From: Acidobacteriota bacterium | GTDB lineage: Bacteria; Acidobacteriota; UBA4820; DSQY01 | Assembly: GCA_040752915.1 (NCBI GenBank) | Contig: JBFMHB010000002.1 | Coordinates: forward strand, 13,967 to 77,966 | Direction of reading: 5' to 3' | Length of the DNA stretch: 64,000 bases | In this document: positions 1,151 to 55,768 of the stretch, one piece after another | Position numbering within the stretch: the stretch's first letter is position 1 | Layout: each line of letters opens with the position of its first letter | Translations under genes and position numbers: made by a program | The notes under the pieces: model-generated | What the model was told of the DNA's origin: nothing | Databases searched by the model: none | The model's input: the letters and a program-made list of their open reading frames with translations, nothing else

Positions 1151-1221
1151 GCCTCCCGATCCAGACCCTCTATCCGATCCCGCCGCCAGGGAGCGCCTCT
1201 CCACGCCCGGTGAGGACCCGG

Positions 1222-2073: not shown

Positions 2074-2173
2074 GCACGCTCCCCATGAACCGTCCCCGAA
2101 GGGCGGCCCCATCATACATCGAGCGGAGTGGGACCTTCACACAACGGGGGCGGGACCGCCCGCGCCCGTGGAT

Positions 2174-9448: not shown

Positions 9449-10084
9449 GTGAGCTACTTCGTCAACCTCAACGTCAAGGGCCGCAAGGCCGTGGTCGTGG
9501 GCGGAGGGAACGTGGCCCTCCGGAAGGTCGGCGGCCTCCTCGCCGCCGGAGCCCGCGTCTCGGTGGTGGCCGAATCTCCCCACCCCGAGATTCGCCTCCT
9601 GGCCGCGGCGGGGCGCCTTCGCCTGGAAGCCCGCCCTTACGCCGATGGAGATCTGGAAGGCGCCTTCCTGGCCGTGGCCGCCACCGACGACGAGGAGGTG
9701 AACGCCCGCGTCTCCGCCGAGGCGGTGCGGCGCGGGATCCTCGTCAACGTGGCCGACCGACCGGCCCTCTGCACCTTCACCCTGCCCGCCGTGGTGCGGC
9801 GGGGGGACCTCACCCTCGCGGTGGCCACCGACGGCCGTTGCCCGGCCCTTTCCCGTGCCCTCCGGGAGGAACTGGAGAACACCTACGGGGAGGAGTACGC
9901 CGGGCTGACGGACCTGATGGGGAGCCTTCGAGGGCGGCTCATGGCCGAGGGACGCCCCTATGGCGAAATCCAGAAGGCCCTGGAGGCCCTCTACCGCGGA
10001 GGGGCCCTCCGCCTCCTGGCGGAAGGCGACCTCGAAGGGCTCCGCGACCTCATCCGGCGAACCTGCTCCCTCGAAGAAGATTAG
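9449..10084 (+). CDS. sirC: Precorrin-2 dehydrogenase / sirohydrochlorin ferrochelatase (siroheme synthase N-terminal domain; SirC/Met8-like).
   Basis: GTG start preceded by GGGAGGAG. Rossmann NAD motif VVVGGGNVALRKV. Length and domain order match the CysG N-terminal domain. It lies immediately downstream of cobA. Confidence 0.75.
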   Translation: MSYFVNLNVKGRKAVVVGGGNVALRKVGGLLAAGARVSVVAESPHPEIRLLAAAGRLRLEARPYADGDLEGAFLAVAATDDEEVNARVSAEAVRRGILVNVADRPALCTFTLPAVVRRGDLTLAVATDGRCPALSRALREELENTYGEEYAGLTDLMGSLRGRLMAEGRPYGEIQKALEALYRGGALRLLAEGDLEGLRDLIRRTCSLEED

Positions 10085-10244: not shown

Positions 10245-12452
10245 TCAGGGGCACGTGCTCGTTGTGTCGATCAGGCTGTTTCCGCACAGCCCCGAAGCGC
10301 TCGTGCTCCGCTGGCTCTCCACTCCGCCGACGCGCTTGAGCCCCCAGGAACTCTCCATGGGGCCCGAATCGCCCACGATGATCCAGAAGGTGTTCCCCGA
10401 GGGCGGGGTCCAGGAGGAGCCGCTGGTGATGCCGCACACGGAGCCGGTCCAGCCATAGGTGGACACGCTCGAGAGGGGGCCGTAGTACAGGTTGTAGGAG
10501 GGGGCCGGACAGGTCGTGGAGTCGAAGGTCACCGTGATGTCCGACCCTGACTTGACCCCGCGCGCGGGCGAGGTGCCTCCCCGCCCGTCGGGCGCCGGGG
10601 CCACGGAGCAGGTCTGGATGGTCACGGCGTGCCCCGCCGAGGTGCCCGAGCACCCCGAGCCGTTGGTATAGGAGACCGTGTAGGTTCCGCTCTCCGTGGC
10701 CGTGTAGGCGGCGCTGTTCGTCCCCACGGGGTTCCCGTTTTTTCTCCACTGGTACGAGGACATCCCGCTTTCCGTGCTCAGAGCCACCGTGGTGGCCGGG
10801 CAGGTGTTGGTGGAGTCCCCCGTGATCGTGGGGGTGGCGGGCTGGTAGGCGTCGGTGCCCGACACCGTGGACGTGGACGCCTCCTCGCCGCAGGTGTTGA
10901 TGTACTTCACCGAATAATCGTAGGCCGTGTTGTTCGTGCCGCCCGTGTCCACCCAGGAGGTGGCGCCGTAGGCGATGTAGCCCGAGGCGTCGGTGGCGCC
11001 GCGGAAGACGCGATAGCCCCGATCGGGGCTGGAAAGGCCCTCGTCCCCCCAGGCCGTGGGAGCGGCCGCCCAGGTGATCCGGGCGCCGTCGTCGGCGCAG
11101 ATCCCGTTCTCGTCCGTGACGGACGGGGCGGACAATCCGGAGGGCACGTCGCAACAAGGCGTCGCGGAGCAGGATCCTCCGCTCTCCCAGGCCGCCACCT
11201 TAACGTCGTCCACCATCCAGTAATACCCGTAGTGGCCCAGGTACCGGAAGCGAACGCGGACGTCGGAGTGGCCCGCGGCCAGGTCGCTGAGGTCCAGGAC
11301 CACGGGAACGGACTCGCCGGGATCGGCTTCCGGCGGGAACCCCCCGGCGGGAGGATTCCCCACGCTCACGCGCCAGGTCTCCACCGTCTGCCACGTGGTT
11401 CCCCCGTCGGTGCTCACGTCCACGAACGCCGACTCCTCGTGGCCCGTTTGGAACGCCCAGAGAAAAGAACGGAAGGTCAGGTCCACGGAAACGGCGTCCG
11501 TGCAATCCAGGGACGGCGAGACCAGGCTGTCTTCCTGGATTCCCCCCTCCCCGTAGTGGTCCGAGTCCAGAATCTCCACGTACCCGCTCATGCCCTCGGG
11601 GAGGGGACGCTCGGCCGGATTGGCGGTGGTCCAGGTCTGGCCCGCGTCTCCACCGTCCTCGAGGCTCCAGCCCGTCGGGGGATCGTCTTCGGAGAAGTCC
11701 TCCTCGAGCAGGTACGCAGCCGGGGACCCCACCGGAATGACGAAGGTCTCCTGCCAGGACCCCTGTTCGCAAGTCATCGTCACCGTGAAGGACATGCGCG
11801 CGCCGCAGGGAACGTCTCGGCCGATGTCGACGGTGAACGAAGCGTCCTCCGGCTGGAAAAACAGGGTGGTATCGTAGGCCTCCACCGTGTCGAGCGAAAC
11901 GGAGGAGGGGGTGACGGTCACCCCGGACGTGGAGGTGGACACCGCGACCTGAGCGGCGGTGGCATCCGTTCCCCCCCGGTTGAGGATCCTCAAGGTCAGA
12001 TCAAGGGTCTCCCCCGGGCCGGCCAACCCGTCTCCGGGACTTGAATCGCAGGAGTCCATCCACCAATGGGAAGCGACCTCCAGCCGGGCGCAGTCCAGCG
12101 TGAACAGGTGGTACTGCCCCCCGTCGTCTTCCGTGGTGGTTCCATCCTGGTTGCTGGAAGTGACCGAGAAGAGGTACGTGTCGCAGGGCAAATCCGTGAG
12201 CGTGATGGAATGGGACGTGCCCGCTTCCTCTACTTCCACATAAGAGCCCAGGGCGCGGGTGGGACCGAAATCCACGCGGCTGTCGGCGGCCTCGTTGGTC
12301 GTCCAGGTCACCGTGGCCGTGGTATCCGTGATTTCGCTGACCTGCACGTCCGTGATGACCGGCCCCGCCCACAAGGCGGACGAAAGGGCCGCAATCCACA
12401 CCGCGACCGAGAAAAGCCCCGCCCGGGTTCCCCGTCTTTTTGCCCTACCCAT
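10245..12452 (-). CDS. Large secreted protein 'A' (~735 aa): signal peptide, Fn3-like repeats, MAM-like/choice-of-anchor-J-like domain (YWMVDDVKV), and the shared C-terminal Cys-bearing domain.
   Basis: Signal peptide MGRAKRRGTRAGLFSVAVWIAALSSALWAGP. TDVQVSEITDTTATVTWTTNEAADSRVDFG is an Fn3 module. The C-terminal domain ends ...GLCGNSLIDTTSTCP. Confidence 0.7.
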   Translation of the reverse strand: MGRAKRRGTRAGLFSVAVWIAALSSALWAGPVITDVQVSEITDTTATVTWTTNEAADSRVDFGPTRALGSYVEVEEAGTSHSITLTDLPCDTYLFSVTSSNQDGTTTEDDGGQYHLFTLDCARLEVASHWWMDSCDSSPGDGLAGPGETLDLTLRILNRGGTDATAAQVAVSTSTSGVTVTPSSVSLDTVEAYDTTLFFQPEDASFTVDIGRDVPCGARMSFTVTMTCEQGSWQETFVIPVGSPAAYLLEEDFSEDDPPTGWSLEDGGDAGQTWTTANPAERPLPEGMSGYVEILDSDHYGEGGIQEDSLVSPSLDCTDAVSVDLTFRSFLWAFQTGHEESAFVDVSTDGGTTWQTVETWRVSVGNPPAGGFPPEADPGESVPVVLDLSDLAAGHSDVRVRFRYLGHYGYYWMVDDVKVAAWESGGSCSATPCCDVPSGLSAPSVTDENGICADDGARITWAAAPTAWGDEGLSSPDRGYRVFRGATDASGYIAYGATSWVDTGGTNNTAYDYSVKYINTCGEEASTSTVSGTDAYQPATPTITGDSTNTCPATTVALSTESGMSSYQWRKNGNPVGTNSAAYTATESGTYTVSYTNGSGCSGTSAGHAVTIQTCSVAPAPDGRGGTSPARGVKSGSDITVTFDSTTCPAPSYNLYYGPLSSVSTYGWTGSVCGITSGSSWTPPSGNTFWIIVGDSGPMESSWGLKRVGGVESQRSTSASGLCGNSLIDTTSTCP

Positions 12453-12637
12453 GGACACCCCTCCCCCGCCCCGCCGGGGCGACTCGAAGGTGCTGCACGG
12501 GAACAAGATAGCCCCGGACGGGGCGGAGGGCTACTCGAAGGGACCTCGGGCTCGGCGGGCTCGCGTGAAATGTGCGTGGGCTCACGGACTTGCACGCGAC
12601 CAGAGCAGGCTCCGTGCCGGCCGGACGCCCAGGCGCC

Positions 12638-15535
12638 TCACGGACAGGCGGTTGCGGTGCTCTTGGCGGTGAAGCCGCACTGGTTGGAGGCGGCGGGGTG
12701 GCGCTCACTCCCCGCCGAGTCCCTTCCCCAGTGACTTTCCATGGCCTCCCCGTCGGTTCCCACGAGGACCCACCAGATGAAGGCCTCCCCCACGGGCACG
12801 GAGGGAGAGGTCCACGCATAGGTCCCCGAGGGCCCCATCCCGCAGACGGCGCCCGAAAGCGCACAGGCCGACAGACCGCTGGCCACGCCCCAGTAAAGGT
12901 TGTAGTCCGGGCTCGCGCAGGTGAAGACGTCCCACGCGATGTCCACCTGGCTTCCGTCCCCATTGGCTTTTGAGGCCCTCGCCGCCGTTCCGGTCACCCA
13001 CCGGCCGTCGGGCACCGGCTTGACCGCGGCAGTCCCCCCCGCGGCGGCGCACGGCTCCACGCTCTCCGCCTCGACGCGCACGTTGTCCACCATCCAGTAC
13101 CACTCGTAGCTCCCGTTGTAGTACCGGAAGCGCACCTGGGCGTCGGAGGCCCCCGCCGCGCGGCTCGTCAGGTCGAGCGTCTCGTGCTCCGGATTCGCCG
13201 TGCTCGCCCCCGTCCACCGGCCCACGTTCTGCCAGGCCCCCGACGTCCGGCTCGACCGGACGTCCACGTCGCACACCTCGCTCTCGTACCGGTAGAAGTA
13301 GTGGTCGAACTCCAGCGTCACCGACGTGGCCGCCGATAGGTCCAGCACCGGCGTGATCAACTGCTCGTCTTGTGTCGCCCCCGTTCCCGCCTCGTCGCTG
13401 TCCACGATGGCGAAGGGATCCGTGATGGGCGCCGTGGCGTTTCTCCCCCCGGGGTTCGACGTCGTCCACGTGGAGGCCGCGCCCCCTCCCGATCCGCCGT
13501 CCACCACCGTCCACGTCCCGGGGATCCCCGACCCGAAGTCCTCGTCCAGCGCCGTGAAACTCGAGTGGCTGCCGGTGGGGGTGCCGGAACGGACGAGGAG
13601 GTTCCCGTCCTCCTGACCGGTCCCGCCGTCCACGGCCCGAACCACGTAATGGTACGTTGTCCCAAGGGCCAGGCCCGCCGCGTCCCGGAAGGCCGTCGCC
13701 ACGATCCCCCTGGCGATGCGGGTCGAGGCATCGGGGACGAATCCCGCGGAGGTGGACCGGTACACGTTGTAGGTCACCGAACTTCCGCAATACGAGGCGG
13801 CCGCTTCCCAAGACAGGTCCAGGGAGCAGGTCGCCTCTCCAGGGTTCACCACGGAGGACAGGCCCGAAAAGGAGGGGGGCTCGGTGCAGGGCCCCGTGGT
13901 CACCGCTTCGGCGCAGTCGCTCGGGGCCGAAAGGCAGTGGCCGGTGGCGTCCAGGGCCTGGATCCGGTAGGCGTAGGGGACGCCTCCCGAGGCCCCTTCG
14001 TCCGTTAAGGCCGCGGAGGCCGTTTCGCCGAGAACCAGGGCCTCCTCCCCGGATGCGCACCCCCCCCTCGTCCGGAGGACCCGGTAGGTCAGGCCACCTC
14101 CCCCAGGGGTCCAGGCCACCTCGACGCGGTTCTCTCCGGCCGGCGTCGCCGAAACGCCGGTGGGAACGGCGGGCGGTCCGCACAGGGGGTCCGCCAGGTG
14201 GGCCAGGGTGGCCACGTAGGCCTTCACGGCCGAGTAGAAGAAGCCGGGCGATCCGCAGTTCGCCCGGGTGTCGTTGGACGTGTGGTAGTAGGGATAGTGG
14301 CCGGCGTGGCTGCAGTATCCCTCGTTGTCCGTGATCCCGCAGACGGCCGACCACCCTTTCTGCCAGAAGGGATAGTGGTCGCTGGCCGTCAGGCTCGCGC
14401 AGGAGAAGGCATCCACCGGACAGCCGGTGGCATACGCCGAAGCGCAGTCCGCAAACAGGAGTCCGAGCCACTGGGAAGACGCGTTGTAATTGAGGTCCAG
14501 GTTTTCCGCCGCGGGAGAGCCATCCCCCTGCCAGCCGATCATGTCCGCGTTGAGGACCGCCTGGATTTGCTCTCCGCGGGCCTGGGCGTCGTCGGCGTAC
14601 GCCGCGCTCCCGTACAGGCCCTGCTCCTCCCCCGTGCAGGCGATGAACTTGACGGTATTGGCGAAGGCGTAGGGCGCCATGGCCCGGGCCGCGGCGGTGA
14701 CGACGGCCGCACCGCTGGCGTTGTCGTCCGCCCCGGGGGCGGCCCCCGAGGAGGGCATGTCATCCAGGTGGCCGATCACGATGTAGACGCGTTCCGGATT
14801 CGTCCTCCCGGTAAGGGTCCCGATGACGTTCGGCGCGTAGCCCGCGCGGTAATCCTGGAGCGACGGGCTCAGGCCCCATTCGGCGAACTCGTCGAAGACG
14901 CCCTGGACCGCGGTCTGGCACCCGGAACTCAGGGAGTGCCGGGTGGTGTAGGTATTCGGGAACCGGCCGCCGATGACCGCGTCCCATGCGCCCGAAAGGG
15001 TGGAAGGGTCCAGGGAGTCCACGAGGGACTGGACGAGAGGCTTGGGCGTGACGGCCAGCGGCTCTCCCCGTCTCTGCCTTTCTGCGTACTCCGGCGGAGG
15101 CGGATCTGGAAGCGCAAGCGGGCGAAAATCCAGGATCTGGAAGAACCAGCGGGGAGACTGGACGCATTCCTCGGGGACATCCCCCTCGAAGCGGAGGAAC
15201 GCGAGATTCTCTTCGAACCGGAGGACTTCGCCGCACGCTCTCTGGAAATCGGGCGACCATCCATCCCTCAACCCCGCCACCGCGTAGGTGGCGCCCTCTT
15301 CCCGGTGATCCAGGATTTCGGCATCGTATCCGAGACGGCGGAGGGTGTCCTCCGGGCCCGCTCCGTCCGCCAGGGCCAGAAAGCCCGACTCGTACTCGTA
15401 AACCAGTTGGACTCCCGCGGAGAGCAGGAGGGCGCGGTCCTCCACGGTGCGCCGTTCGATGCGGAGGATCTCCGCGGCGGCCGTCCCCGGCGGTGCCCAC
15501 AGAATCAAGCCCAATGCCAGGGCCGGCCACTTCAT
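12638..15535 (-). CDS. Giant secreted M28-family aminopeptidase-like protein 'B' (965 aa): signal peptide, M28 zinc-peptidase domain, Fn3 repeats, MAM-like domain, shared C-terminal domain.
   Basis: M28 motifs VIGHLDDMP (His-Asp), DDNASGAAVV (Asp), ACTGEEQGLYGS (Glu-Glu) and VLNADMIG. Signal peptide MKWPALALGLILWAPPGTAAA. The C-terminal domain ends ...NQCGFTAKSTATACP. Confidence 0.8.
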   Translation of the reverse strand: MKWPALALGLILWAPPGTAAAEILRIERRTVEDRALLLSAGVQLVYEYESGFLALADGAGPEDTLRRLGYDAEILDHREEGATYAVAGLRDGWSPDFQRACGEVLRFEENLAFLRFEGDVPEECVQSPRWFFQILDFRPLALPDPPPPEYAERQRRGEPLAVTPKPLVQSLVDSLDPSTLSGAWDAVIGGRFPNTYTTRHSLSSGCQTAVQGVFDEFAEWGLSPSLQDYRAGYAPNVIGTLTGRTNPERVYIVIGHLDDMPSSGAAPGADDNASGAAVVTAAARAMAPYAFANTVKFIACTGEEQGLYGSAAYADDAQARGEQIQAVLNADMIGWQGDGSPAAENLDLNYNASSQWLGLLFADCASAYATGCPVDAFSCASLTASDHYPFWQKGWSAVCGITDNEGYCSHAGHYPYYHTSNDTRANCGSPGFFYSAVKAYVATLAHLADPLCGPPAVPTGVSATPAGENRVEVAWTPGGGGLTYRVLRTRGGCASGEEALVLGETASAALTDEGASGGVPYAYRIQALDATGHCLSAPSDCAEAVTTGPCTEPPSFSGLSSVVNPGEATCSLDLSWEAAASYCGSSVTYNVYRSTSAGFVPDASTRIARGIVATAFRDAAGLALGTTYHYVVRAVDGGTGQEDGNLLVRSGTPTGSHSSFTALDEDFGSGIPGTWTVVDGGSGGGAASTWTTSNPGGRNATAPITDPFAIVDSDEAGTGATQDEQLITPVLDLSAATSVTLEFDHYFYRYESEVCDVDVRSSRTSGAWQNVGRWTGASTANPEHETLDLTSRAAGASDAQVRFRYYNGSYEWYWMVDNVRVEAESVEPCAAAGGTAAVKPVPDGRWVTGTAARASKANGDGSQVDIAWDVFTCASPDYNLYWGVASGLSACALSGAVCGMGPSGTYAWTSPSVPVGEAFIWWVLVGTDGEAMESHWGRDSAGSERHPAASNQCGFTAKSTATACP
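13078..13556. repeat. Copy 1 (in gene B) of a ~480 bp near-identical nucleotide cassette encoding the MAM-like domain. Copy 2 lies in gene C at 15966-16442.
   Basis: Read directly: long runs such as gttgtccaccatccagtaccactcgtagctcccgttgtagtaccggaa...ctcgaccggacgtccacgtcgcacacctcgctctcgtaccggtagaagtagtggtc occur in both genes with only scattered mismatches. The encoded peptides are about 98% identical. Confidence 0.85.
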
Positions 15536-15572
15536 GTCCTCGCCCCTCCTATCCTGGATGCCCTCCCACCCC

Positions 15573-18500
15573 CTACGGGCAGGCGCCCGTGGGATCGATG
15601 TGGCGCGGGCCGGCGGATGCGCTTCCGGGGTGACCGTCCCCCCCGGGATTCCAGCCGGTGACGAGGTACCAGAGGACTCCTCCCGGGGCCGCCGCGGGAT
15701 CGTCTGAAAGACCCGTGGCTTCTGGCAATCCGAGGTTGTCCAGGCGTTTGCAGGAATCCAGGCCGCCGTCGAGCAGGGCCGAGAGGTCCGCGAGGACGCC
15801 TCGGTAGAGGTGGTAGTGATAGGCTTCTGTGTTGGAGCCCCATTCCAGGGTCGAATCGTCGGTCCACTTCATGTGGGTGGCCGGAGTGCCCGCGGTTTCG
15901 CCGGGGGCCGCGGCGGGCACGCAGGCGCTCATGGCGCACCCTCCGGGAGCGGTGTAGGTGACCCGAACGTTGTCCACCATCCAGTACCACTCGTAGCTCC
16001 CGTTGTAGTACCGGAACCGCACCTGCGCGTCGGAGGCCCCCGCCGCGCGGCTCGTCAGGTCCAGGGTCTCGTGCTCCGGATTCGCCGTGCTCGCCCCCGT
16101 CCACCGGCCCACGTTCTGCCAGGCCCCCGACGTCCGGCTCGACCGGACGTCCACGTCGCACACCTCGCTCTCGTACCGGTAGAAGTAGTGGTCAAACTCC
16201 AGCGTCACCGTCGTGGCCGCCGATAGGTCCAGCACCGGCGTGATCAACTGCTCGTCTTGTGTCACCCCCCAGCCCGCCTCGTCGCTGTCCACGATGGCGA
16301 AGGGATCCGTGATGGGCGCCGTGGCGTTTCTCCCCCCGGGGTTCGACGTCGTCCACGTGGAGGCCGCGCCCCCTCCAGATCCGCCGTCCACCACCGTCCA
16401 CGTCCCGGGGATCCCCGACCCGAAGTCCTCGTCCAGCGCCGTTCCGGACCCTGGTACGGGCTGGCCCAGCATCACGGAGAAGGTGTCGTCCCAGGCGCCC
16501 TGGTTCGAGACCAGGTGCAGGGAGAAAGTCGCCGACGTACCGCAGGAGACCGAGGGGTCCGCGAAGACCCGGAAGTGGGGCGGATCGGAGGCGCGCTCCT
16601 CCCCGGAGGGAATGTCGGAATAGGATGCCGAATCGACCAGCACGAGGATGCCCGGCGTCGAGGTGGAGAGGCTCCCCAGGACCGCCGTGGCGCCGGAGGT
16701 TCCCACGTTTTCCGCCGTCACGGCAAGGATGGCCTCCTCCCCCGCGTCCCAGACGCCGTCTCCGCCTCCTCCCCCCGAGCCGGTGCAGGCGTCCGTCAGG
16801 AGGTGGGAGGCGTAGGCCAGTTCGGCCCCACAGGACTGGGCGGGGAAGGTGAAGCTCAGGCTCCAGGAATCGATGGTTCCCGTGTCCGAACCTGCGTCGT
16901 CCACGACCTTCAGGCCCCAGTTCCCCGCCGCCACCTGGCCGTCGAAGGCCGACAGGGAGCCCTCGGGACGGAAGGTGCCTGTGAAGGGAGCCGTCCCCCC
17001 CGTGATGGACGAGGAGGCCTCGTCGTCCAGGACCGTCTCCGTGAAGTTCTCGCCCGAGCCGCCGTTGTCGGTGGAGAGTTCGACCTGGGTGCCCTGGGGG
17101 CTCACGAGATAGATGTCCAGATCGCCGTCGTAGGTGTGGGTGATGGAGTGGATGGTCACGTTCACGTCCACGATGACCTTGTCGTCGGGCACGGACAGGA
17201 CCGAGGTCACCCCTGCCGGGTTCGCGTCGGGAATGGCCAGCCCCGGGGTCTCGGTGCGCGTGTAGGTGGGCGCGCTCGTGACGCCCGTCGTAAAGGCGTA
17301 GTAGGCGCCCCCGTTGTCGTCGGAAGAGGAGTTGCCGGCGGGGTCCGCCGAATCCACGGCGTAGTAGTAGCCCCGGCAGGCTTCCAGGGCGCTCAGCGTC
17401 ACCGAGTGAGCCGTCCCGTACGCCGCGTCGGACCCCGTGGAGGAAGGCGGGACGGATGTGCCGTACCGCACGCGCGAGTCGGCGGGCTCGTCCGTGGTCC
17501 ATGTGACGGTCACGTTTTGGCCGCTCACGGAAGCCGAGACGTCGGAGATGACCGGGGCCCGGCAGTCCCCGGAGGCCGTTCCGTCCACGTCGACGTTCGG
17601 GGTCCCGCAGTAGTCCGCGTCCACGTAGCGCACGGTCAGGGTGGCTCCGTCGGTCATGCGGACCTCGGAGGGACCGGGTGTGGACGAATCCGTGGTGGCG
17701 ACGGTGCCCGTGTAGACAGCCGACCCCGGTGGAGTATTGGACAGGGTGAAGCTCTTGTGGCTTCCGTCGGCGGTGGACCAGGCTTCCACCGCAAGGGTGG
17801 CGGGCGAGCCGGGGACGTTCGAATCCACTACGGTCACCCCCACGGAGTCCGTGCACCGGACGACCGCCTTGGACAGGGACACGGATCCCGCGCAGGGCAT
17901 GGGGGTCACCGTCGCGCAGGCGCTCATGGCGCTCACGCAGGAATCGCTTGCGGTCGCGGCCTGCACGCGGTAGAAGTAGGTGATCCCGTTGACAACGGTC
18001 GTGTCCGTGTAGGCGAGGGAGGGGGCGTTCACCGTGGCCACCTTGGTGAACCCCGCGTCGCAGTTCATCTCGTTCCGGTAGATGAAATAGCGCGTCGCGT
18101 TCGGCCCGCCGGAGGTCCAGGTCAGGAGCGCCGAATCGCTCCCCGCGGCCACCGAAGCCGTGGGAACGGTCAGGGAAGGACAGGAGGTCTGGTTCTGGTT
18201 GGTGGCGTCGCCCGCGGACCCGCAGGCGATTCCGTGGCGGGCGAGGCTGGAGTAGATCGCCGCCGCGTGGGGCGTCCCGTTGGCCGTCCCGTCCCCGTCG
18301 TCGTCGAAGGCCCTCATGGTCGAATACAGGCTCCCCCCGTTGCAGCCGTTGGAGGTCGGGGGCGTGCAGGTGTACATGTTGCCCAGAGTGGGCATGCTCG
18401 AATAGAAGAGGCGGTCCGCGAGCTGCCAGGCCGTGGGAAGGTCCAGGCCGCACAGGGCCGGCAGATCCCGGTTCACGAAGTCCCACAGGGCCTGGGTGGA

Positions 18501-20234
18501 GAGGCCCGATTCGCAGTGGTCCTCCCATCCGCAAGGCCCGTTGTAGGAGCCCGACCCGCCGCAGTTCCAAACGCCGCCGGACCCCTGATTTTGCGGGGTC
18601 CACGGCGTCTGGGAGGCGTGCATCATGTAGTCCGCGTCCCGGATCCCCGAACAACCCGTGCAGGCGTCCCCGTAGCCGTCGCAGTTCCCGCTCGTGAAAG
18701 CGCCGCGGCCGGTGCAGGAATCGTGGAGCTGCAGGGTCGCGGTCCAGTCGGCGCGCGTCTCCACGGGCGGGCTGTCTCCCCCCGAACCGTCGTAGTCGTC
18801 CATGCTGTGGCCCCACTCGTGGAGCGACACCCCGGGGATCTCTCCCAGGTTCCAGCACCCCGCGGCGGCCTTGTAGAAATTCAGCGTTCCGCCCCCGGAG
18901 GTTGCGTTGCACCAGGCGTTCTGATTCACGTTCACGTTCATGTGGCTCGAGTTCAGCCAGGTGTTTCCCGGCATGTAGGTCCTGGCTTTGATATTGATGT
19001 TGGTGAGGTGGTAGTACTGGATCTTGGCCGACCACGTGTTGCCGGGACCTCCGGGATTGGGGCTGGGCACTCCGCAGTCCGTGCCCACGCTCTGGCCGTA
19101 GTCCGCGTCGCCCGTCGTGGTCGACAGGCTCGTGGACCCGCACGAGTCGTTGATCCAGGTGTATTTCCCCTGGGTGAGATCCACGGTGGCCGAATCGCCC
19201 GGGAAGAGCCCGCCCACGTCCGCGTAATCGTTGGGTGCCGGCAAATTGGTCCGGACGAAGGGAAAGGGCCGGTCGGAGGGGTTGTTGTGGTTGTCGCCCG
19301 GATAGACCACGCCGTGGACCCGGCCGTAGCGGTTGGCATCGACAAAGCGGACGATCTCCCCCGAATGGGCGTCCACGAGAGCTTCCCACATGCCCACCAC
19401 ACCGGGGCGCCGGAACGAGAGCCGGTAGCAAAGGACGTGGTCGAGGCCCGCTCCCACCTCTCCCTCGTAGCGGTTTGGATCGGCTCCCCGAGGCAGGACG
19501 GGGATCAGGAGCAGGGAGCCCGTGTCGAGAATTTCGTCCTTTTCTCTCGGGAAATCCTGGAGGTACCCGGCCAGAATCTGCCAGGCGGTCTCCAGGCTGA
19601 GGGCGGGCCGCGGGTCCGTCCGGACGGCGGCCACCTTCTCGGTGACCACCTGGATCAGGTTTCCGTTGTTGATCCGGAAACGGATGACCGCCCCCTCCAC
19701 CGGCACGCCCGCGACGACCTGCTGGAAGTTGGCGTAGGCCATGTGGCCCGCCGCCCCCAGGCCGTCCCGGATCGGCACGAACTGGGACGGATCGACCTGG
19801 AAGAGATCCCGGTGGCGCCAGAGGAATTCGAGGGCCAGGGACTCGACGGTGCCGGCGGGCAGGCACTCGGGGTCGGGGCAGGCCATGCCCCATTCCGCCG
19901 GGTCCAGATCGTTCGCCGGCCCCGGAATGAAGGGTATGGCCCCGCCTTCCAAGAGAGAGGGAACGCCGCGACGCAGGTCCATCCACGCGCGCCACTGGCC
20001 CCCCGCCTCCGCGCGCAGGGCTCGCAACCCCTCCGCCTGGGCGGCGGCGCCCTCCAGGAGATCCGCATCCGCCTGGATTTCCACCACCCGAAGCTCGGGC
20101 CGGACGGTGGTCAAATGGTCGAAGGGATGGAGCGGCTCCTTGGCCCTCTGGCTCCACGTGGCGATCGAAACCACGGCGAACCCGGCGAGAAGCGCAACGA
20201 CTGTAAGGCAGGACCGTCTGATGGTGGCGCGCAT
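15573..20234 (-). CDS. Giant secreted HExxH zinc metalloprotease 'C' (1553 aa): signal peptide, FTP/PepSY-like propeptide region, Cys-rich catalytic domain (HEWGH), Fn3 repeats, proprotein-convertase P-domain, MAM-like domain, shared C-terminal domain.
   Basis: GVSLHEWGHSMDD is an HExxH motif. TYDGDLDIYLVSPQGTQVELS...GNWGLKVVDDAGSDTGTIDSWSLSF is P-domain-like. The signal peptide is present. The peptidase family is not resolvable by eye. Confidence 0.75.
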   Translation of the reverse strand: MRATIRRSCLTVVALLAGFAVVSIATWSQRAKEPLHPFDHLTTVRPELRVVEIQADADLLEGAAAQAEGLRALRAEAGGQWRAWMDLRRGVPSLLEGGAIPFIPGPANDLDPAEWGMACPDPECLPAGTVESLALEFLWRHRDLFQVDPSQFVPIRDGLGAAGHMAYANFQQVVAGVPVEGAVIRFRINNGNLIQVVTEKVAAVRTDPRPALSLETAWQILAGYLQDFPREKDEILDTGSLLLIPVLPRGADPNRYEGEVGAGLDHVLCYRLSFRRPGVVGMWEALVDAHSGEIVRFVDANRYGRVHGVVYPGDNHNNPSDRPFPFVRTNLPAPNDYADVGGLFPGDSATVDLTQGKYTWINDSCGSTSLSTTTGDADYGQSVGTDCGVPSPNPGGPGNTWSAKIQYYHLTNINIKARTYMPGNTWLNSSHMNVNVNQNAWCNATSGGGTLNFYKAAAGCWNLGEIPGVSLHEWGHSMDDYDGSGGDSPPVETRADWTATLQLHDSCTGRGAFTSGNCDGYGDACTGCSGIRDADYMMHASQTPWTPQNQGSGGVWNCGGSGSYNGPCGWEDHCESGLSTQALWDFVNRDLPALCGLDLPTAWQLADRLFYSSMPTLGNMYTCTPPTSNGCNGGSLYSTMRAFDDDGDGTANGTPHAAAIYSSLARHGIACGSAGDATNQNQTSCPSLTVPTASVAAGSDSALLTWTSGGPNATRYFIYRNEMNCDAGFTKVATVNAPSLAYTDTTVVNGITYFYRVQAATASDSCVSAMSACATVTPMPCAGSVSLSKAVVRCTDSVGVTVVDSNVPGSPATLAVEAWSTADGSHKSFTLSNTPPGSAVYTGTVATTDSSTPGPSEVRMTDGATLTVRYVDADYCGTPNVDVDGTASGDCRAPVISDVSASVSGQNVTVTWTTDEPADSRVRYGTSVPPSSTGSDAAYGTAHSVTLSALEACRGYYYAVDSADPAGNSSSDDNGGAYYAFTTGVTSAPTYTRTETPGLAIPDANPAGVTSVLSVPDDKVIVDVNVTIHSITHTYDGDLDIYLVSPQGTQVELSTDNGGSGENFTETVLDDEASSSITGGTAPFTGTFRPEGSLSAFDGQVAAGNWGLKVVDDAGSDTGTIDSWSLSFTFPAQSCGAELAYASHLLTDACTGSGGGGGDGVWDAGEEAILAVTAENVGTSGATAVLGSLSTSTPGILVLVDSASYSDIPSGEERASDPPHFRVFADPSVSCGTSATFSLHLVSNQGAWDDTFSVMLGQPVPGSGTALDEDFGSGIPGTWTVVDGGSGGGAASTWTTSNPGGRNATAPITDPFAIVDSDEAGWGVTQDEQLITPVLDLSAATTVTLEFDHYFYRYESEVCDVDVRSSRTSGAWQNVGRWTGASTANPEHETLDLTSRAAGASDAQVRFRYYNGSYEWYWMVDNVRVTYTAPGGCAMSACVPAAAPGETAGTPATHMKWTDDSTLEWGSNTEAYHYHLYRGVLADLSALLDGGLDSCKRLDNLGLPEATGLSDDPAAAPGGVLWYLVTGWNPGGDGHPGSASAGPRHIDPTGACP
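15966..16442. repeat. Copy 2 (in gene C) of the ~480 bp near-identical cassette shared with gene B.
   Basis: See the copy 1 entry. Confidence 0.85.
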
Positions 20235-20481
20235 GAGTCCCCTCCCCGCGAGGCTGCAGGTTCAGCCAGAGAGGGCCCACACGCTATGCGGAACGAGAAT
20301 CCCACCCAGAGGCCCCCGCCCCTCGTAACCCGACAGCTCCGTATAGGATTCTGGTGCCTCCTGGCGAAGATGTCAAGTTCTTGAAACAATAGAGGTTACT
20401 CCGTTCTCAGCATCCTGTCCGGGCAGGAGGGACGCCCCCGCACGCCTGTCCCCCCCATGAAGACCGATGCGGCAAAGCCGA

Positions 20482-20507
20482 AAGGGCGGCCCCGAAAGGC
20501 CGCCCTT
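20482..20507 (-). terminator. Terminator-like hairpin downstream of gene D (perfect 10 bp stem aagggcggcc / ggccgccctt, loop ccgaaa).
   Basis: The inverted repeat was read directly. It lies 53 bp below the D stop on the minus strand. The T-tract is weak. Confidence 0.5.
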
Positions 20508-20559
20508 GCTTCCCGATTTCCGCGAACCGAGGCCCGCCTCGTTCCGCCTCCGCAACTTC

Positions 20560-23500
20560 TTACGGCATGCCGTCGCAGTAGGAATCGGCGGCGCGGGCCA
20601 CGCCTTCCGACGTGGTTCCCAGGGAGCCCTCGGCGCCCGTCCCGTTGTCGGCCGTGACGAGGAAATACAAAACCGATGGCGTGGAGGTGAGGCCCGCCTC
20701 CAGGTCCACATCGCCCACCTGGAGGAGTTCTCCCGCATCCGTCCAGGAGGACCAGAGGCATTCCTTCTTGCCGACGGAGGCGTCGGTCACCTGGAAGGCG
20801 GTGGTCACCGGCGAGGAGGACACGTAGAGCTGGTAGTGGTAGGCCCCCACGTCCTCGAACTCGAGATCCACGAGGCTCCCGTCCTTGGCGGCTTTGAGGT
20901 GGTGGGAGGCGTCGTCGGAGACCTCGGCGGGGGGCGGGCAGAGGGACCAGGTGACGGACGTGGCGGAGGCGTCCTCCGTGTAGCCCGAGCAGCCGTACCC
21001 GGTGACCCGGCAGGTGTAGGAGTGGGCGGCCGCCGAGGAGAAGACCGGGCTGTACGTGGAGCCGGTGGCCCCGGAGACGGGGACACCGTCTTCGATCCAC
21101 TGGTAGGAAAGGGGAGCCGTGCCTCCCGTGGCGGAGGCGGTGAGGGTCACCGGAACCCCCAGGCAGGGCGAAAGGGGGCCCTCGGGAGCGACCGTAACGG
21201 ACGAGGGGTTCGTGCAGGCGCATCCGTCCTTTTCGTTGATGAGGATCCGGATGTCGTCCACGTACCAGCCCTCGGTCCCCGTGCAGCCCGACCAGCACGT
21301 GTAGGTGTACACCACGAACTTGAACCGGAACTGGGTGGCCCCGGCGTAGGCGCTCAGGGGCACGGCCAGTTCGCCCCAGGTCAGGTCTCCCGCGTCGAGG
21401 TAGAAGGATTCGTTCCGGACCCAGGTCGTCCCCCCGTCGGTGGAGATCCACACCCGGGCGCGGCTGTAGCCCGGACAGGGAATGGCGGCCGCGTGCCAAA
21501 AGCGCAGTTCTTTGAGGACGGTGCCCGAGGGGACGGCGATATTGGGACTGATCCAGGATTCCTCGGGGTTCGTGTAGCAGACGTCGGGGGAGGCCTCGGG
21601 CGTGTGGTAGCTGTGGGTGGCGCTGTGGGCGCGATCGGTGGACCAGATCCAGTCCCCGTGGCCGAGGGCCGTGGTGCAGGCGCTCACGCTCCGGGCCGTG
21701 GTCCCCGCCCAGCCGTTGGGGTAAGCCTCGGCGTCGTCGGAGAAGAGGAGGTCCTTGTCGGTGGCCTTGGCGAAGGTCCCCGAAACGGGGGAGATGTTGC
21801 CGCCCGTGAGCGTGTACGAGAAGGTGATGCTCCGGTCCGCGTACCCCGCCGGATCGCAGGCCAGCGTCACCAGGAAACTGCGCTGGGCCGTGGCCCCCGA
21901 GGCGATGTCCCCGAGAAAGACGGTGGGATTGGCGAGGGTCACGGCGGAGGCCGGGATGTCGCTGTCGGCGGCCACCCCCAAGGAGAGATAGACGGCCGTG
22001 GCGGTCTGGCCCGCGCAGGAGGAGTTGAGGGCGCTCACGGTGAGGGTGACGGTCTCCCCGTTGTCGATGTACCCGTCGCCGTCGCCCGAGAGGTCCAGGA
22101 CCGTGCTTCCGGCGTAATCCACGTGGGGCCCCGACACGGACCCGTAGACGTACCCGATGCTCGAGGTCTCGGCCCCGATGCAGCGCACGTCCATCAGGCC
22201 CGAGGTGGTCTCGTTGTTGAGGGCGTTGTTGGGATCCGTCGTGGAGGTGAATTCGGAAGCCCCGTCCTCGTAGGAGAAGGCGGCCCCCGCCGTGCTCGAG
22301 TTGAGGCCGTCGGCGGTGGTCGTGTTCCACCCCTTGCGCTCCACGTTGGCGGCATACGGCGGGTCGTCGCGGAACCCGTTCACATCCCGGTGCCAGACGA
22401 GAAGGCCGAACTCGGGCAGGTAGGGCTCGTAGTAGCCCACGGGCGCGCGGTTCTCAAAGACGAACCACTCGCTGGAGTCGTTGGGGCAGACGGCCCGGTG
22501 CATGACGTTGTCCTGGGCCGCTCCCGAGAGGGCGTCGATGCGGTAGGCCCCTGGATGATGGCTTCCGCCGGAGTACAGGTCCGTCACGTCTGCGGTGAAG
22601 ATCCACCCGTAGCTGTCCGAGGCGTTCTGCAGTTCGATGTCGAACTTGAGGGGCGTCCCCATGTGAGAGGGGTTCGTGCCCGATTTGACCCCGTTGTAAG
22701 AGCCGTTGTCCATGAGGTCCCACTCGCCCGCCACGGTGGCGTCGTAGTCGTAGTCGTAGAGGTCGGGGCCGCCGAGGGTGTGGAAGCCCTCGTGGGCGTA
22801 GACCCCCACGCCGAACCACTTGTCCGTGACGGCGGGCGGGCTCACGCCGCGGTTGAGGGCCGGCTCGAATTCGGGATTGATGGAATACGTATGCCCCCGA
22901 GGGACAGACTTCCCGTCCACGGTGACGGCCGTGTCGATGTTCCACTGGTGAGACCAGATGTGATTCAGGGGATCGGTCACCCCGTCGCAAGATTCTCCGT
23001 AGTGCTCCTGGCCTTCCCTCGCGTGGATGACGAAGATCATGAGTTCGGCGTCGGAGATCGTGCCGTCGCCGTTCGTGTCGTACCGCGCGTAATCCACGTC
23101 GGGCTCGGCGGCCTTGATGGCCCATTCGATGAGATCCTTGATGTTGTTCACGCTGTCGCTGCTGCAAAACCCCATCTTGTACTTGTCCTCCCCCCAGTAG
23201 GCCATGGTCTGGGGGTTGATGTACCAGCCGTCGTTGACCACGGTGCCCGAGCCGGCCCCGTTTTGGGCCACCGTCACGTCCCACTGGAACTGTCCGTAGG
23301 AGACCTCGTCGTAGTAGTGGTTGAGGCCGCCGGGGATGGCCGGGTCCCCGAAGAGGTCCTGCCAGGCGGAGGCATCGTTGGGGCGGCCCGGGATGGGCTC
23401 GTAGCCGGGCTCGCCCGCGATGGGCGTATTCGGCCCCGTGGTGTGGCGGCTCGCCGTGTCGGCGAAGTCCACGAGGATCACGAGGACAGGGAGGCTCAGG

Positions 23501-24018
23501 GGCGTCGGGTTTACGGCCAGGGGCTCCTCGCCGGGGGCCGGGGGCAACCGGTCCGCCCGCGTTCCGAAGCCGCATTCCAGGAACCGCCGCTTCACCGACC
23601 CGTCGTTTTCCGGGCGCAGGGGGATCTTCAGGTCCGATGGGTCCATGCGGGGACGGATGTGCCGGGGCCATCCCTCGGGAACCGCGTCCCGCCCCGCCCG
23701 CAGCCGCGAGGGAGACAGGGCCTCAAGGCCCCCCGTCGCCGGATCGGCGTACACCCAGAAACCCTCCCCGTCCCGGACCAGGGTAAAGCCGTCCTCGGAT
23801 TCGAAGAAGCAGAGGCGCTCGTCCCCCACCATCCGGACCACCACCGGCGTCCCGTCGGGCTGGAACCTCACGTGGGGCTTGGGGTAGGCCTTCACGGCCC
23901 AGACCGCCACCGAGGCCGACAGGGCGCCCGCGGCCGCCGCCGCGAGCGCAAAGTTCTTCCAGGACAAGGATTCACGGAAAAAGGACCGGCCACGCTCCTT
24001 CGGACGCACGTTCCCCAT
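20560..24018 (-). CDS. Giant secreted M6-family (immune inhibitor A / InhA-like) metalloprotease 'D' (1152 aa) with Fn3 repeats and the shared C-terminal domain.
   Basis: VLVILVDFADT, YDTNGDGTISD and YAHEGFHTLGGPDLYD (HExxH) match the InhA-like M6 layout. Signal peptide or TM helix at residues ~20-45. Confidence 0.75.
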   Translation of the reverse strand: MGNVRPKERGRSFFRESLSWKNFALAAAAAGALSASVAVWAVKAYPKPHVRFQPDGTPVVVRMVGDERLCFFESEDGFTLVRDGEGFWVYADPATGGLEALSPSRLRAGRDAVPEGWPRHIRPRMDPSDLKIPLRPENDGSVKRRFLECGFGTRADRLPPAPGEEPLAVNPTPLSLPVLVILVDFADTASRHTTGPNTPIAGEPGYEPIPGRPNDASAWQDLFGDPAIPGGLNHYYDEVSYGQFQWDVTVAQNGAGSGTVVNDGWYINPQTMAYWGEDKYKMGFCSSDSVNNIKDLIEWAIKAAEPDVDYARYDTNGDGTISDAELMIFVIHAREGQEHYGESCDGVTDPLNHIWSHQWNIDTAVTVDGKSVPRGHTYSINPEFEPALNRGVSPPAVTDKWFGVGVYAHEGFHTLGGPDLYDYDYDATVAGEWDLMDNGSYNGVKSGTNPSHMGTPLKFDIELQNASDSYGWIFTADVTDLYSGGSHHPGAYRIDALSGAAQDNVMHRAVCPNDSSEWFVFENRAPVGYYEPYLPEFGLLVWHRDVNGFRDDPPYAANVERKGWNTTTADGLNSSTAGAAFSYEDGASEFTSTTDPNNALNNETTSGLMDVRCIGAETSSIGYVYGSVSGPHVDYAGSTVLDLSGDGDGYIDNGETVTLTVSALNSSCAGQTATAVYLSLGVAADSDIPASAVTLANPTVFLGDIASGATAQRSFLVTLACDPAGYADRSITFSYTLTGGNISPVSGTFAKATDKDLLFSDDAEAYPNGWAGTTARSVSACTTALGHGDWIWSTDRAHSATHSYHTPEASPDVCYTNPEESWISPNIAVPSGTVLKELRFWHAAAIPCPGYSRARVWISTDGGTTWVRNESFYLDAGDLTWGELAVPLSAYAGATQFRFKFVVYTYTCWSGCTGTEGWYVDDIRILINEKDGCACTNPSSVTVAPEGPLSPCLGVPVTLTASATGGTAPLSYQWIEDGVPVSGATGSTYSPVFSSAAAHSYTCRVTGYGCSGYTEDASATSVTWSLCPPPAEVSDDASHHLKAAKDGSLVDLEFEDVGAYHYQLYVSSSPVTTAFQVTDASVGKKECLWSSWTDAGELLQVGDVDLEAGLTSTPSVLYFLVTADNGTGAEGSLGTTSEGVARAADSYCDGMP

Positions 24019-24123
24019 GACGCCCTCCCACTTGCAGACTATTTGCGGAAGGGCCCCTGAACGTCACGGGGGATTCTCTGGCTGGGGATCGCTCCCAACG
24101 GGGGTGTGGACGCGAAGAAGAAA

Positions 24124-24149
24124 GAGGCGGGCCAAGGCCCGCCCCTTTT
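24124..24149. terminator. Bidirectional terminator-like hairpin between genes D and E (stem ggcgggcc / ggcccgcc, loop aa), flanked by T-rich runs on both strands.
   Basis: gaagaagaaagaggcgggccaaggcccgcccctttt. It lies 26-50 bp downstream of the gene E stop on the minus strand. Confidence 0.55.
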
Positions 24150-24174
24150 CTCCGGTGTTGGACCGACCAGAGCC

Positions 24175-27100
24175 CTACGGGCAGGTGCTCACCGTGCTCT
24201 TAGCGGTGAAGCCGCACTGATTGGAGGCGGCAGGGTGGCGCTCGTTCCCGGCCGAGTCCCTGCCCCATGAGCTTTCCATCACGGAGGCGTCCGAACCGAC
24301 GAGGACCCACCAGACGAAGTCCTCCCCCTCCGGGATGGCCGGGGCTGACCAGCTGTAGCTTCCCGTCGGTCCCATGCCGCAGGAGCTTCCCGAAAGGGAG
24401 TAAGAGGAAAGGCCTCCTTCCGTTCCCCAGTAGACGTTGTAGGCGGGGCTTACGCAGGTGGAGACGTCCCAAGTAAGGTCCACCGTCCTCCCGTCCTGAG
24501 ACGTCTTGGCGGCCATCATCGGTGTCCCCGTGACCCACCTCCCGTCGGGGACGGGCTTGACCGACGTGGTGCTCCCGGATGTGGAGCAGGGGGTGTTTGT
24601 CTGCACGTGCGACACGACGATTTCGTCCACGTACCAGCCCTCGTAGGTCAGGGATCCATCCGTCGAGAAATTCCATCGCACGAGGATTGTCTGGCCGTTG
24701 TAGGCCGAGAGCGTCACGCTGTACTGCGTCCAGGTGAGGTTCGTGCCCGTATAGCAGGGTAGATTGTTGTCGTATCCGCAGGCGTCGCTCGTGTTCCGAA
24801 AGGTGTCTGGATAGGCCGGCGCCGGCGTCAGTTGGGTCCAACTGGAGCCTCCGTCGCTGGACACCTCCACAACGCCGCCGTCGTAACGGCTTTCGATCTC
24901 ATAGGCCGTCCAATACGTCATGCGGGAAAGCTGACCCGCCGTGAGGGTCAGGGGAGGGGTCCGGAGCGCGCCGCAAGAGCTGTCCGCGTACCCAGAGTGG
25001 TACGCGCTGGCACCTCCGTGGACCCGCGCCGCGGTGGTGTGCCAGGTTCCGGTGAGAGTCATGGCCGGATCGCCCACCTCCGCCCCCGCCTGCCAGGTGG
25101 AGTCTCCGATGCTCCCCACGGGAACCGCGGAACGCCGAACGAGATTCGAATCCTCGACCCCATTGGCGTCATCTACGGCCCTCACGACGTAGTAGTAGGT
25201 CGTCCCGCTTACGAGGCCCATGGCATCATGAAAAGACGTCCCCAGGACCCCTGTCGCAATCATGCTCCCAGTCCCCGGAATGAAGCCCGAGTCGGTGGAT
25301 CGGTAGATGTTGAAGGTCACCTCCCCACCGCACTGGGCGGACGCCGCGCTCCATTGGAGATCCAGGGAACAGGGAGACGCCGAGCCGGAGGTAACGGCGG
25401 ACAGGCCTGCAAACATGGGGGCTAGGGTGCATACCCCCTCGGCCGTTTCCGAAGCGCAAGAACTCTGGGCCGACTGGCAACGGCCCGTCGCGTCCACACC
25501 CACCACGTGATAAGCGTACGAGGTTCCTCCCGAAACCTCAGTGTCCGTGTAGGAGGTTGACGTGAGCCCTTCGGCCAACAGGGTCCAGGCCAGCGGCGCG
25601 GGCGAGCAGGTGGAGCCCTGTGCCCGATACAGGCTGTACGTGGCGGCCGCTGGGGAACCTCCCGCCCAGGACAGGTCGATTCGGTTGTCTCCGTTGGCGA
25701 TGGCCTGGAGCGATGAGGGCGCTCCCGGGTCCTCGCATCCGCACTCGTCGAAGCGAAAGGAGGCCACCCGCGTGGCGCTGCTCCCGGACTCCATGTACTC
25801 GGAAAAGAACCAAAACGTGCACTCATCCACGGGATCAACGCCTATGCCCGCGTAGTCACCCCATCTATCGTACGTCGTCTGGGAGGAGACCCCGTCGATG
25901 ATCCGGTGTTCGTAGTAGGGCATGGTTCCCAGGGGGTCCGTGCTGAGCCGACCCGCATAATAGAGAGACGGGTAATAAGGGGTGCTGCTTCCCGTTCGGG
26001 TGTAACCCACGGCGATGTTCCCACTGCCATCCATGGCGGCGCTCGCGACGGACCGATGCACCCCCGGTTCGCCTCCGAGGGTCCCTTCCTGATACAGGTA
26101 CCAGGAGGATCCCTCCTTCCGGAGCTCGAACCACCTCACCGCCGCGTGATCCGTCCCGTCCACGTCCACCGCAAAGGCTCCAACCAGCGTTTCGTGCGAG
26201 CCGAAGTTTCTGTATTGGAGAGGGAAGTGGAGCGGCTCCCGAATGGGGTCGATGGCCTGCGTGGTTCCCGGCTGGGGCATACAGTCCCAGTTTCCCGACG
26301 TTCCGCAAAGGGTGTGATCCCAGTCCGTCATCTGGATGCTGGGTAATTGAGTGACGAAGGAATTGGCCGGTGTGGCCCAGTCCACGAAGACCTCGCGCAT
26401 TTCCATCAGGTCGCATCCCGCGCACGTACCTCCGTGGATCTCGGTGTCCACGGGGCGCAAGAAGAGGCCCCTGGCCCCGGAAGGCGGGGGATTAGGCCCC
26501 TCGTGGCCAGCGGGAAGGAAAAGCTGGAAGCCCCACCCCGCAAGGTCCGGAAGCGAGAACTTCTGCATCGTCGCCGGTTGGCCGGTCAGCATCTTGGAGC
26601 GTTCCATCGCAAAAACGTCGCGCGTCGTGGACGTGCCCGCGTTTACGCCCACAAGGTAAGCTCCGTCGTCGAAAGCCCCGTCCCCATCCTCGTCCAGAGG
26701 CCAGACACCGTACTTGGGGTAATCCGGCACGCTCGAATAACCGGCGTTGAAGGTGTAGGCGTACCATGCGCCCGTCGGGTCCGGGGTCTGGGACACGTAA
26801 ACGCAGAAGTAACTTCCCGTTCCGGAGAATTCACTGATGACCCACCGGTCGGCCAATTGGTCGTAAAGGACGATGGGGTCGCAGTACCCGTTGTTGCAGG
26901 GGGAGGTCGAGGAGAGGCTCTCCATGGTAAAAGAAGTGTCGAATACTCCGTTCTTGTCGAAGACCCATACCGTTGAGTTTGCCGCGTTCACGCCTTGAAC
27001 GACGTGATCCGGCCCGACGTCCCCCGTGCAGTCCGGGGGATAGGATCCGTAGTCCGCCCCCTCCACGTTGACGATCGGTGTGTCAAAGGCACTTGGCGCC

Positions 27101-27378: not shown

Positions 27379-27399
27379 AGGATCCTCCCCTTCCCCACT

Positions 27400-29748: not shown

Positions 29749-29923
29749 GCGCCTGGCCGCCGGCGGCTCGAGCAGATTGCAGCAATCCGCGTCAAAAGCT
29801 TTATTCTAGCAGCCCCCAAGGTATGGGGCTTCGCTCTCCGACTCCTCGTCGCCTCTCTTGGCGAGATCAAACAGGTGGGGCGGGCCGGAGCCCGCCCCGT
29901 TTGAATCCGATGCCGGGCTTCTC

Positions 29924-50752: not shown

Positions 50753-50820
50753 GTCCTTCGATGCGAAGAAAAGGGGCGGCCGGCGGCCGCCCCTTTTCTG
50801 TTGGCGCGAGACGAACGGTT

Positions 50821-55710: not shown

Positions 55711-55768
55711 GGCTTTCCCTCGTAATAGAACCGGCCCCCTCCCTTAAGGGAGGGGGCCGGACGAAAGG

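Follow-up and report, generated by a model that had tools for sequence, protein, structure and literature searches.

The DNA analysed here, a window of 64,000 nucleotides (67% G+C) from an uncultured member of the Acidobacteriota (GCA_040752915.1, contig JBFMHB010000002.1), encodes on its minus strand two adjacent secreted peptidases, which we term B and C, that contain a domain-sized block of nearly identical DNA, hereafter the cassette. We consider it likely that the cassettes of B and C are kept alike by concerted evolution, via gene conversion acting on domains that were already in place in both genes.

The two copies (13073-13555 in gene B, encoding residues 661-821, and 15960-16442 in gene C, encoding residues 1265-1425; both on the minus strand, i.e. 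in direct orientation, with a start-to-start spacing of 2887 bp) align over 483 bp without gaps and with 13 mismatches (97.3% identity). Repeat finding, a MAFFT pairwise alignment and a BLAST comparison of the window with itself all agree on this extent. A preliminary description of the window had reported a near-identical segment of ~480 bp with scattered mismatches; its coordinates lie within 6 bp of ours, the peptide it quoted is correct, and the identity in the self-alignment is well above the floor of ~85% that it had set. The cassette pair is by far the strongest self-match of the window, in which other DNA matches between paralogs do not exceed 75% identity. The block is in frame and comprises 161 codons (T-ALDEDF...MVDNVRV), nine of which differ synonymously between the copies, while three amino acids are changed (T/W, A/V and S/T; 98.1% identity at the protein level). 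Most of the 13 mismatches, nine in all, fall on third codon positions (P=0.009 relative to random errors), which is the pattern left by evolution under purifying selection and is unlike sequencing or assembly noise. The longest exact run common to both copies is 128 bp. The spacing of the mismatches is uneven, with only one in the first 164 nt of the cassette; nested conversion tracts of different ages, which such spacing might reflect, were considered and dropped, as the deviation is not significant (hand estimate, Poisson P ~0.07). The limits of homology are abrupt, and the first codon outside the block is already unrelated on either side. The sequences beyond it are indeed unlike, as had been stated, but "diverged" does not describe most of them: the rest of B and C is mostly non-homologous, with different catalytic domains, and only the C-terminal tails are distant homologs (34% amino acid identity).

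Gene B (12638-15535, minus strand, 965 aa; identical protein in MEW5763511.1 and MFZ5983505.1) encodes a signal peptide, an M28 peptidase, FN3 repeats, the cassette and a Cys-rich C-terminal tail. Gene C (15573-20234, minus strand, 1553 aa; P0419, with the exact protein in MEW5763512.1 and MFZ5983504.1) encodes a signal peptide, a fungalysin-like (FTP/M36-type) region, FN3, a proprotein-convertase P domain, a CARDB-like domain, the cassette and a divergent tail. The cassette is preceded by an FN3 domain in B and by the CARDB-like domain in C. Both copies match the NCBIfam family choice-of-anchor J (NF038128), copy B with 45.9 bits over model positions 2-162 of 162 and copy C with 41.2 bits, the curated cutoff being 30 bits, so that each covers the full length of the model above the cutoff; the repeated block is therefore exactly one complete choice-of-anchor J domain. 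The same 161 residues gave no significant match in a Pfam scan with E-values up to 1, in which MAM (PF00629), InhA-like MAM (PF20773) and Cleaved_Adhesin were all absent. An AlphaFold (AF2) model of the cassette, built from 19 homologs, has a predicted local distance difference test score (pLDDT) of 93.3 and a predicted MAM-like jelly-roll beta-sandwich fold. Its top five Foldseek matches in the PDB are chains A-D of 3m1h and 4itc, i.e. the K3 and K1 cleaved adhesin domains of the Porphyromonas gingivalis Lys-gingipain (E 5e-8 to 9e-8, 22-23% identity, template modeling (TM) score 0.64-0.69), followed by the MAM-like domain of InhA2 (4yu5), meprin (4gwn/4gwm) and the MAM domain of neuropilin (5l73, TM 0.69), all with probability 1.00; carbohydrate-binding modules are also found among the structural matches, after the adhesin domains. 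The predicted structure is therefore similar to both the MAM fold and the K1/K3 domains, and the label "MAM-like", applied earlier to this segment, is appropriate at the level of fold but not of sequence, where the domain belongs to choice-of-anchor J and lacks a Pfam MAM match. A cluster of four mismatches, which includes two of the three amino acid changes, lies in codons 55-58 (window 13376-13387 and 16263-16274), in one loop that follows the DSDEAG motif and reads G-T-G-A in one copy and G-W-G-V in the other; the same positions are variable in the related sequences L001, L017 and P0001. This loop may be a candidate specificity loop.

Divergence between the cassettes is low also at silent sites: synonymous divergence (dS) is 0.079, nonsynonymous divergence (dN) is 0.011, and 8 of 91 four-fold degenerate sites differ (8.8%), compared with 56% of four-fold sites and dS above 1.4 in the adjoining tails of B and C. 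Since the identity extends to silent sites, selection at the protein level cannot explain it. Furthermore, both genes held the domain before it was homogenized. A contig of another lineage (L016, JGI 3300037310) is collinear with window positions 13428-16210. Its first bases correspond to cassette position 235 of a C-type gene; a tail of C type and a body of B type follow, and the contig breaks off at position 129 of the cassette in a B-type gene. Its flanks differ from those of the window by a dS of 0.87-1.11, close to saturation, with 50-60% of four-fold sites changed. A full-length ortholog of C (P0111), 44% identical and of equal length, has the domain at the same position. Another relative is a 3275-bp contig (L001) from the genome MAG014 (GCA_040758175.1), with 87-90% nucleotide identity to the window; in the orthologous flanks ~26% of four-fold sites differ, so that the cassette pair within the window is significantly less diverged (P=0.0002). 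At the nucleotide level, the cassettes of window B and C are 97.3% identical to each other but only 92.1% and 90.9% identical to that of L001 and 85-91% identical to those of L016, whose C-linked copy is as far from window B as from window C. Copies in the same genome resemble each other more closely than they do their orthologs in other genomes, and their grouping follows the genome rather than the gene. The preliminary description had proposed recent gene conversion, or a domain-cassette exchange, between paralogs, and suggested dating it by comparison with related loci. The former is supported by a domain that was present earlier in both genes of L016 and in P0111, yet differs by only 8.8% at four-fold sites in the window, and the latter indicates that the last homogenization was recent (dS ~0.08) and would have occurred after the split from the L016 lineage, and probably also after the split from the ~90%-identical sister MAG014.

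The same relatives bear on the alternative of a one-off recent domain shuffling, in which a copy of the segment from one gene would have been inserted into the other, or would have replaced a different domain there, by illegitimate recombination, with no prior homologous domain and no ongoing conversion. The borders of the cassette coincide exactly with the domain limits and its flanks are non-homologous, as such an event would leave them; besides, in most M28 homologs of gene B it is an InhA-like MAM domain (PF20773) that is present, instead of a match to choice-of-anchor J, which implies that a domain replacement did take place at some point in the history of B, and an initial non-homologous step may be needed in any case. 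A single event at dS 0.08, however, cannot account for L016, where the cassette is found in both genes at a flank dS of ~1, or for P0111, which has the domain too, and we regard this explanation as unlikely.

The cassette also has an unusual third-position composition. Its G+C content at third codon positions (GC3) is 0.93-0.94, vs 0.80-0.88 elsewhere (Fisher P=0.0009 for B and 0.04 for C), and is raised in the cassettes of L001 and L016 as well, but not in the old, unconverted cassette paralog in gene A (GC3 0.86; 11196-11708, minus strand), which at 38% amino acid identity and ~70% nucleotide identity over 129 bp exhibits the divergence expected without homogenization. The raised GC3 fits GC-biased conversion. 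Between the window and L016, the cassette fragments (L016 3-251 and 2666-2794) differ at 29-32% of four-fold sites, far less than the flanks with their 50-60% (P=0.002); GC-biased conversion, recombination between lineages or fast-evolving flanks are possible reasons. This difference would also suit an import of the cassette into both genes from another lineage, by horizontal transfer followed by homologous recombination. We find such an import highly improbable, as the same allele would have to enter the two genes independently, or enter once and then spread by B/C conversion all the same. Three scans of the collections, together with searches, revealed no donor closer than 92%, and GC-biased conversion or faster evolution of the flanks could also account for the divergence pattern.

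Because the window is a MAG contig, we also considered whether the duplicate or the joining of its flanks could result from repeat-induced misassembly or from strain mixing in the metagenome assembly, a caveat raised in the preliminary description. All independent short-read assemblies break inside the cassette: at least eight short-read contigs (L016, L017 and L029-L034) end there, and the 128-bp exact run shared by the copies is close to typical k-mer and read lengths. The Logan contigs among them (L030, L031 and L034; k=31) end exactly 30 nt beyond the nearest distinguishing site or unique flank, as is expected for k=31 when the reads hold a second copy. L029-L034 are assemblies of the same strain as the window. 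On the C side, L032, L033 and L034 match window 16217-34018 with 99.994% identity, break off at positions 226, 207 and 30 of the cassette, respectively, and have C-specific bases; the C-specific variants at coding positions 66, 171-173 and 179 recur in L032 and L033, linked to the C body. On the side of gene A, L029, L030 and L031 are 99.2-99.7% identical to the window, start at cassette positions 237, 447 and 447, respectively, and have B-specific bases linked to the B tail. In L029, positions 1-13 include a C-type base at site 249, beside the contig end, yet sites 378-480 are of B type and linked to the B tail; this is either a polymorphic boundary of a conversion tract or a contig-end artifact, and in the latter sense it speaks for a faulty assembly. 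Against such a fault, the 13 differences fall preferentially on third codon positions and both genes are in frame, the copy-specific states are tied to their own flanks in independent assemblies, the full-length B protein is also known from a JGI source and two GenBank records, and L016, from another lineage, has the same adjacency of C tail and B body between cassettes. Moreover, with single-copy unique flanks, the order in the window is the only linear arrangement that uses each piece once. The caveat is thus answered as far as variants and linkages are concerned, while it is true that every short-read assembly stops within the repeat; an artifact appears to us very unlikely.

The scattered mismatches between near-identical repeats in genes of secreted binding proteins, several of them clustered in one loop, also recall the template and variable repeats of a diversity-generating retroelement (DGR), or another programmed cassette switching. 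Among the large open reading frames of the 64-kb window there is no reverse transcriptase, transposase or integrase. Adenine is involved at two of the 13 mismatches in copy B and at one of 13 in copy C, and synonymous changes prevail among the mismatches. Each copy is a complete coding part of an intact gene, with no silent donor present. A DGR was rejected for the lack of a reverse transcriptase and of an adenine bias, and the probability of targeted diversification in any form seems to us negligible. A mobile element as the explanation was likewise ruled out by the absence of a transposase or integrase and by the housekeeping genes in the flanks.

Several points weigh against concerted evolution by gene conversion and should be set beside the evidence for it. 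No conversion event was observed directly. The window's own contig is the only one that spans both copies, and no independent contig covers the whole cassette. The two cassette fragments of L016 do not overlap, so that identity within that genome is deduced from the contig breaks only. When the cassette itself is compared between the window and L001, 18.6-21.4% of four-fold sites differ, and the 8.8% within the window is only marginally lower (P=0.078); dating the event against the MAG014 split therefore depends chiefly on the flanks. Finally, ancestral domains that had diverged as far as the tails (34% amino acid identity) could not have started homologous recombination, and the conversion model therefore needs either continuous homogenization since the duplication of the module or an initial non-homologous replacement of the domain.

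In the explanation that we favor, gene conversion would be non-allelic: homologous recombination would copy the domain-coding segment of one gene onto that of the other. The converted tract would fill the whole usable homology between B and C, and would stop at the limits of the domain, since the sequence beyond them is unrelated or saturated. The segment between the cassettes (13556-15959, minus strand) runs from the C tail across a 37-bp gap, where a GGAGG ribosome-binding site lies, into the B body, and together with one cassette it makes up a 2887-bp repeat unit. Crossing-over between direct repeats 2.9 kb apart would delete the C tail and the B body and fuse the C body to the B tail in frame. 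This geometry predicts the form found in L001, where positions 30-3131 are a single intact frame composed of a C body, a cassette and a B tail, with exactly the 2887-bp repeat unit missing. The hybrid is deposited in GenBank as MEW6758931.1, annotated as partial, and serves as the representative of gene C at the 90% cluster level. Either true recombination or an assembly path that skipped the repeat loop gave rise to it. We sought a switch point between B-like and C-like states inside the L001 cassette as a mark of the crossover and found none: of the 13 sites, nine have the B state, three the C state and one neither, in no order. The earlier suggestion that the repeat is a hotspot for deletions and duplications is accordingly supported by a hybrid that lacks exactly 2887 bp, and weakened by the fact that a loop-skipping path could give the same result. 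Hybrid "genes" in MAGs, such as MEW6758931.1, call for caution for this reason.

A second structural difference is found in L028 (GCA_964589625.1, 85-87% nucleotide identity), where the order is F, a HEAT-repeat gene, E, D and A, without C and B. The missing segment of ~8 kb (12512-20483, minus strand) includes C and B with the upstream region, and D is followed directly by A (L028 9883-9942). No direct repeats or microhomology are evident at the borders of this segment, and the difference reflects either a loss or a gain of the C-B pair. Taken together, the hybrid form, the presence or absence of the 8-kb gene pair and the concerted evolution show that this protease island is structurally fluid.

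Contig look-ups with the exact proteins of B, C and P0178 had no hits. A metagenome scan with the cassette yielded only relatives of at most 70% identity, each with a single cassette copy, and a search with the cassette protein retrieved mostly fragments from contig ends; the closest named relatives are annotated as Thermoanaerobaculia or Polarisedimenticolaceae. In a related cassette on L017 (GCA_030153585.1, ~3559-3564) we found an in-frame stop after '...LITPVLNL', beyond which the domain continues in frame, i.e. either a pseudogenized copy or a sequencing error. A cassette homolog of 59% identity (L011 10001-10474) comes from a contig that binning assigned to a Methanomassiliicoccales archaeon, which could be due to cross-domain transfer or to mis-binning. 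In an unrelated contig with 34% GC (L018), a 343-bp block that is 87% identical occurs in two adjacent genes on the same strand (9638-9979 and 14373-14714; 2194 and 1202 aa) and encodes a CARDB-like domain, the type that precedes the cassette in gene C. Domain-sized homogenized blocks seem to recur in this class of proteins.

B and C belong to a group of six minus-strand genes (A-F, window 10.2-36.5 kb) that encode large modular secreted proteins. Gene A has a catalytic part without assignment and a diverged choice-of-anchor-J-like domain, gene D encodes an M6/InhA-like peptidase, in gene E the corresponding position is occupied by an InhA-like MAM domain (PF20773), and gene F is a paralog of gene C (all on the minus strand); the HEAT-repeat gene sits between E and F. 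Genes A-G correspond to MEW5763510-517, and again to MFZ5983506-499, on a 94,985-bp contig of an Acidobacteriota MAG. The remaining genes of the window have housekeeping functions (glycine cleavage, siroheme synthesis, asparagine synthase and others). C and B are probably transcribed together, since only the 37-bp gap with its ribosome-binding site separates them and no terminator-like site was found between them in a promoter and terminator scan. In that scan, the count of promoter-like sites was at chance level; one such site, TTGACA-17-CAGAAT, lies upstream of gene C (20348-20376, minus strand). Other paralogous repeats in the window are 73-75% identical at the nucleotide level and not homogenized: a tandem repeat in gene F (32069-32334 vs 32321-32592), an Ig-like domain common to A and F (10618-10810 vs 30309-30501), and the tails of B and E (12640-13026 vs 24177-24563). 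The self-BLAST also revealed two short perfect or near-perfect palindromes (50767-50799, 33 bp, and 55731-55760, 30 bp).

The C-terminal tails of all six proteins contain Cys residues, are ~110-145 aa long and align as one family. The B tail (12641-13072, minus strand) is a C-terminal domain of 144 aa, 73% identical at the nucleotide level to the gene E tail (24177-24563), and the C tail (15576-15959, minus strand; 128 aa) is a divergent member, with 34% amino acid identity to the B tail and saturated synonymous sites. The tails of A (10245-10600), D (20560-20930), E (24175-24560) and F (29924-30290) likewise form the C-termini of their proteins. In A, B, C and E the tail directly follows the MAM-like or choice-of-anchor J domain, while in D and F an Ig-like domain intervenes between the two. 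None of the tails of A-F has a Pfam or NCBIfam match, but a profile search with the tail retrieved 1491 cluster representatives (505 at E<=1e-10), in which it is almost always located at the extreme C-terminus. The structural model of the tail is of low confidence (pLDDT 46.8). We suggest that the family is possibly an undescribed sorting or anchoring module that follows "choice-of-anchor" domains. A bolder possibility, to which we give little credence, is that the cassette serves as a portable recombination "joint" that swaps catalytic bodies and C-terminal tails among secreted peptidases, a combinatorial system of protease targeting maintained by selection, with the tails as a large undescribed sorting/anchoring family. 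If this were true, one product would be seen in the L001 hybrid and another in the variable presence of the C-B pair, while the blocks in the 34%-GC lineage would be a third sign.

Nothing in these results overturns current understanding; the cassette is a new example of a known and well-documented behavior of bacterial genomes, in a poorly studied phylum. Its merit lies in a clean and well-bounded case of domain-level concerted evolution in uncultured Acidobacteriota, between two proteases that otherwise share almost nothing, and the repeat explains why assemblies of this locus are fragmented. It also suggests that two peptidases, probably co-expressed, are held to one binding specificity, which may be the selective benefit.

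Among known systems, the NF038128 family is matched over its full model by both copies, although its definition is silent on homogenization at the nucleotide level, and the C-terminal module that follows the cassette is not among the known sorting signals. With the MAM and InhA-like MAM domains of meprin, neuropilin and Bacillus InhA2 the cassette shares, according to its model, the same jelly-roll beta-sandwich and a placement after a metallopeptidase, but it lacks a significant Pfam match to either family. In Helicobacter pylori, babA/babB, sabA/sabB/hopQ and homA/homB undergo segmental concerted evolution, in which RecA-dependent intragenomic recombination leads to conversion and chimeric genes (PMC3960876). 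As in babA/babB, identity within the strain is limited to one segment while the rest diverges; however, the H. pylori genes are whole-gene paralogs of outer membrane proteins at dispersed loci, whereas B and C are adjacent, otherwise unrelated genes with one common domain. The closest parallel is offered by hagA, kgp and rgpA of P. gingivalis, where identical adhesin-domain repeats within and between genes break automated assemblies (PMC5266723), and where homologous recombination between repeats in a tandem hagA-kgp locus gives rise to in-frame deletion derivatives (PMC9328147). There, too, secreted proteases and adhesins contain near-identical DNA for beta-sandwich adhesin domains, and it is the K3 and K1 domains of Kgp (3m1h and 4itc; E ~5e-8) that the cassette model matches best. 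The differences are that our genes come from Acidobacteriota and not from Bacteroidota, encode M28 and fungalysin-like metallopeptidases instead of C25 cysteine proteases, have one domain per gene instead of arrays and no Pfam Cleaved_Adhesin match, and end in a different C-terminal module in place of the C-terminal domain of the type IX secretion system (T9SS); adhesion and recombination are here predicted from the sequence. With these differences, the behavior of the cassette mirrors that of the structurally related gingipain adhesin domains of a distant phylum.

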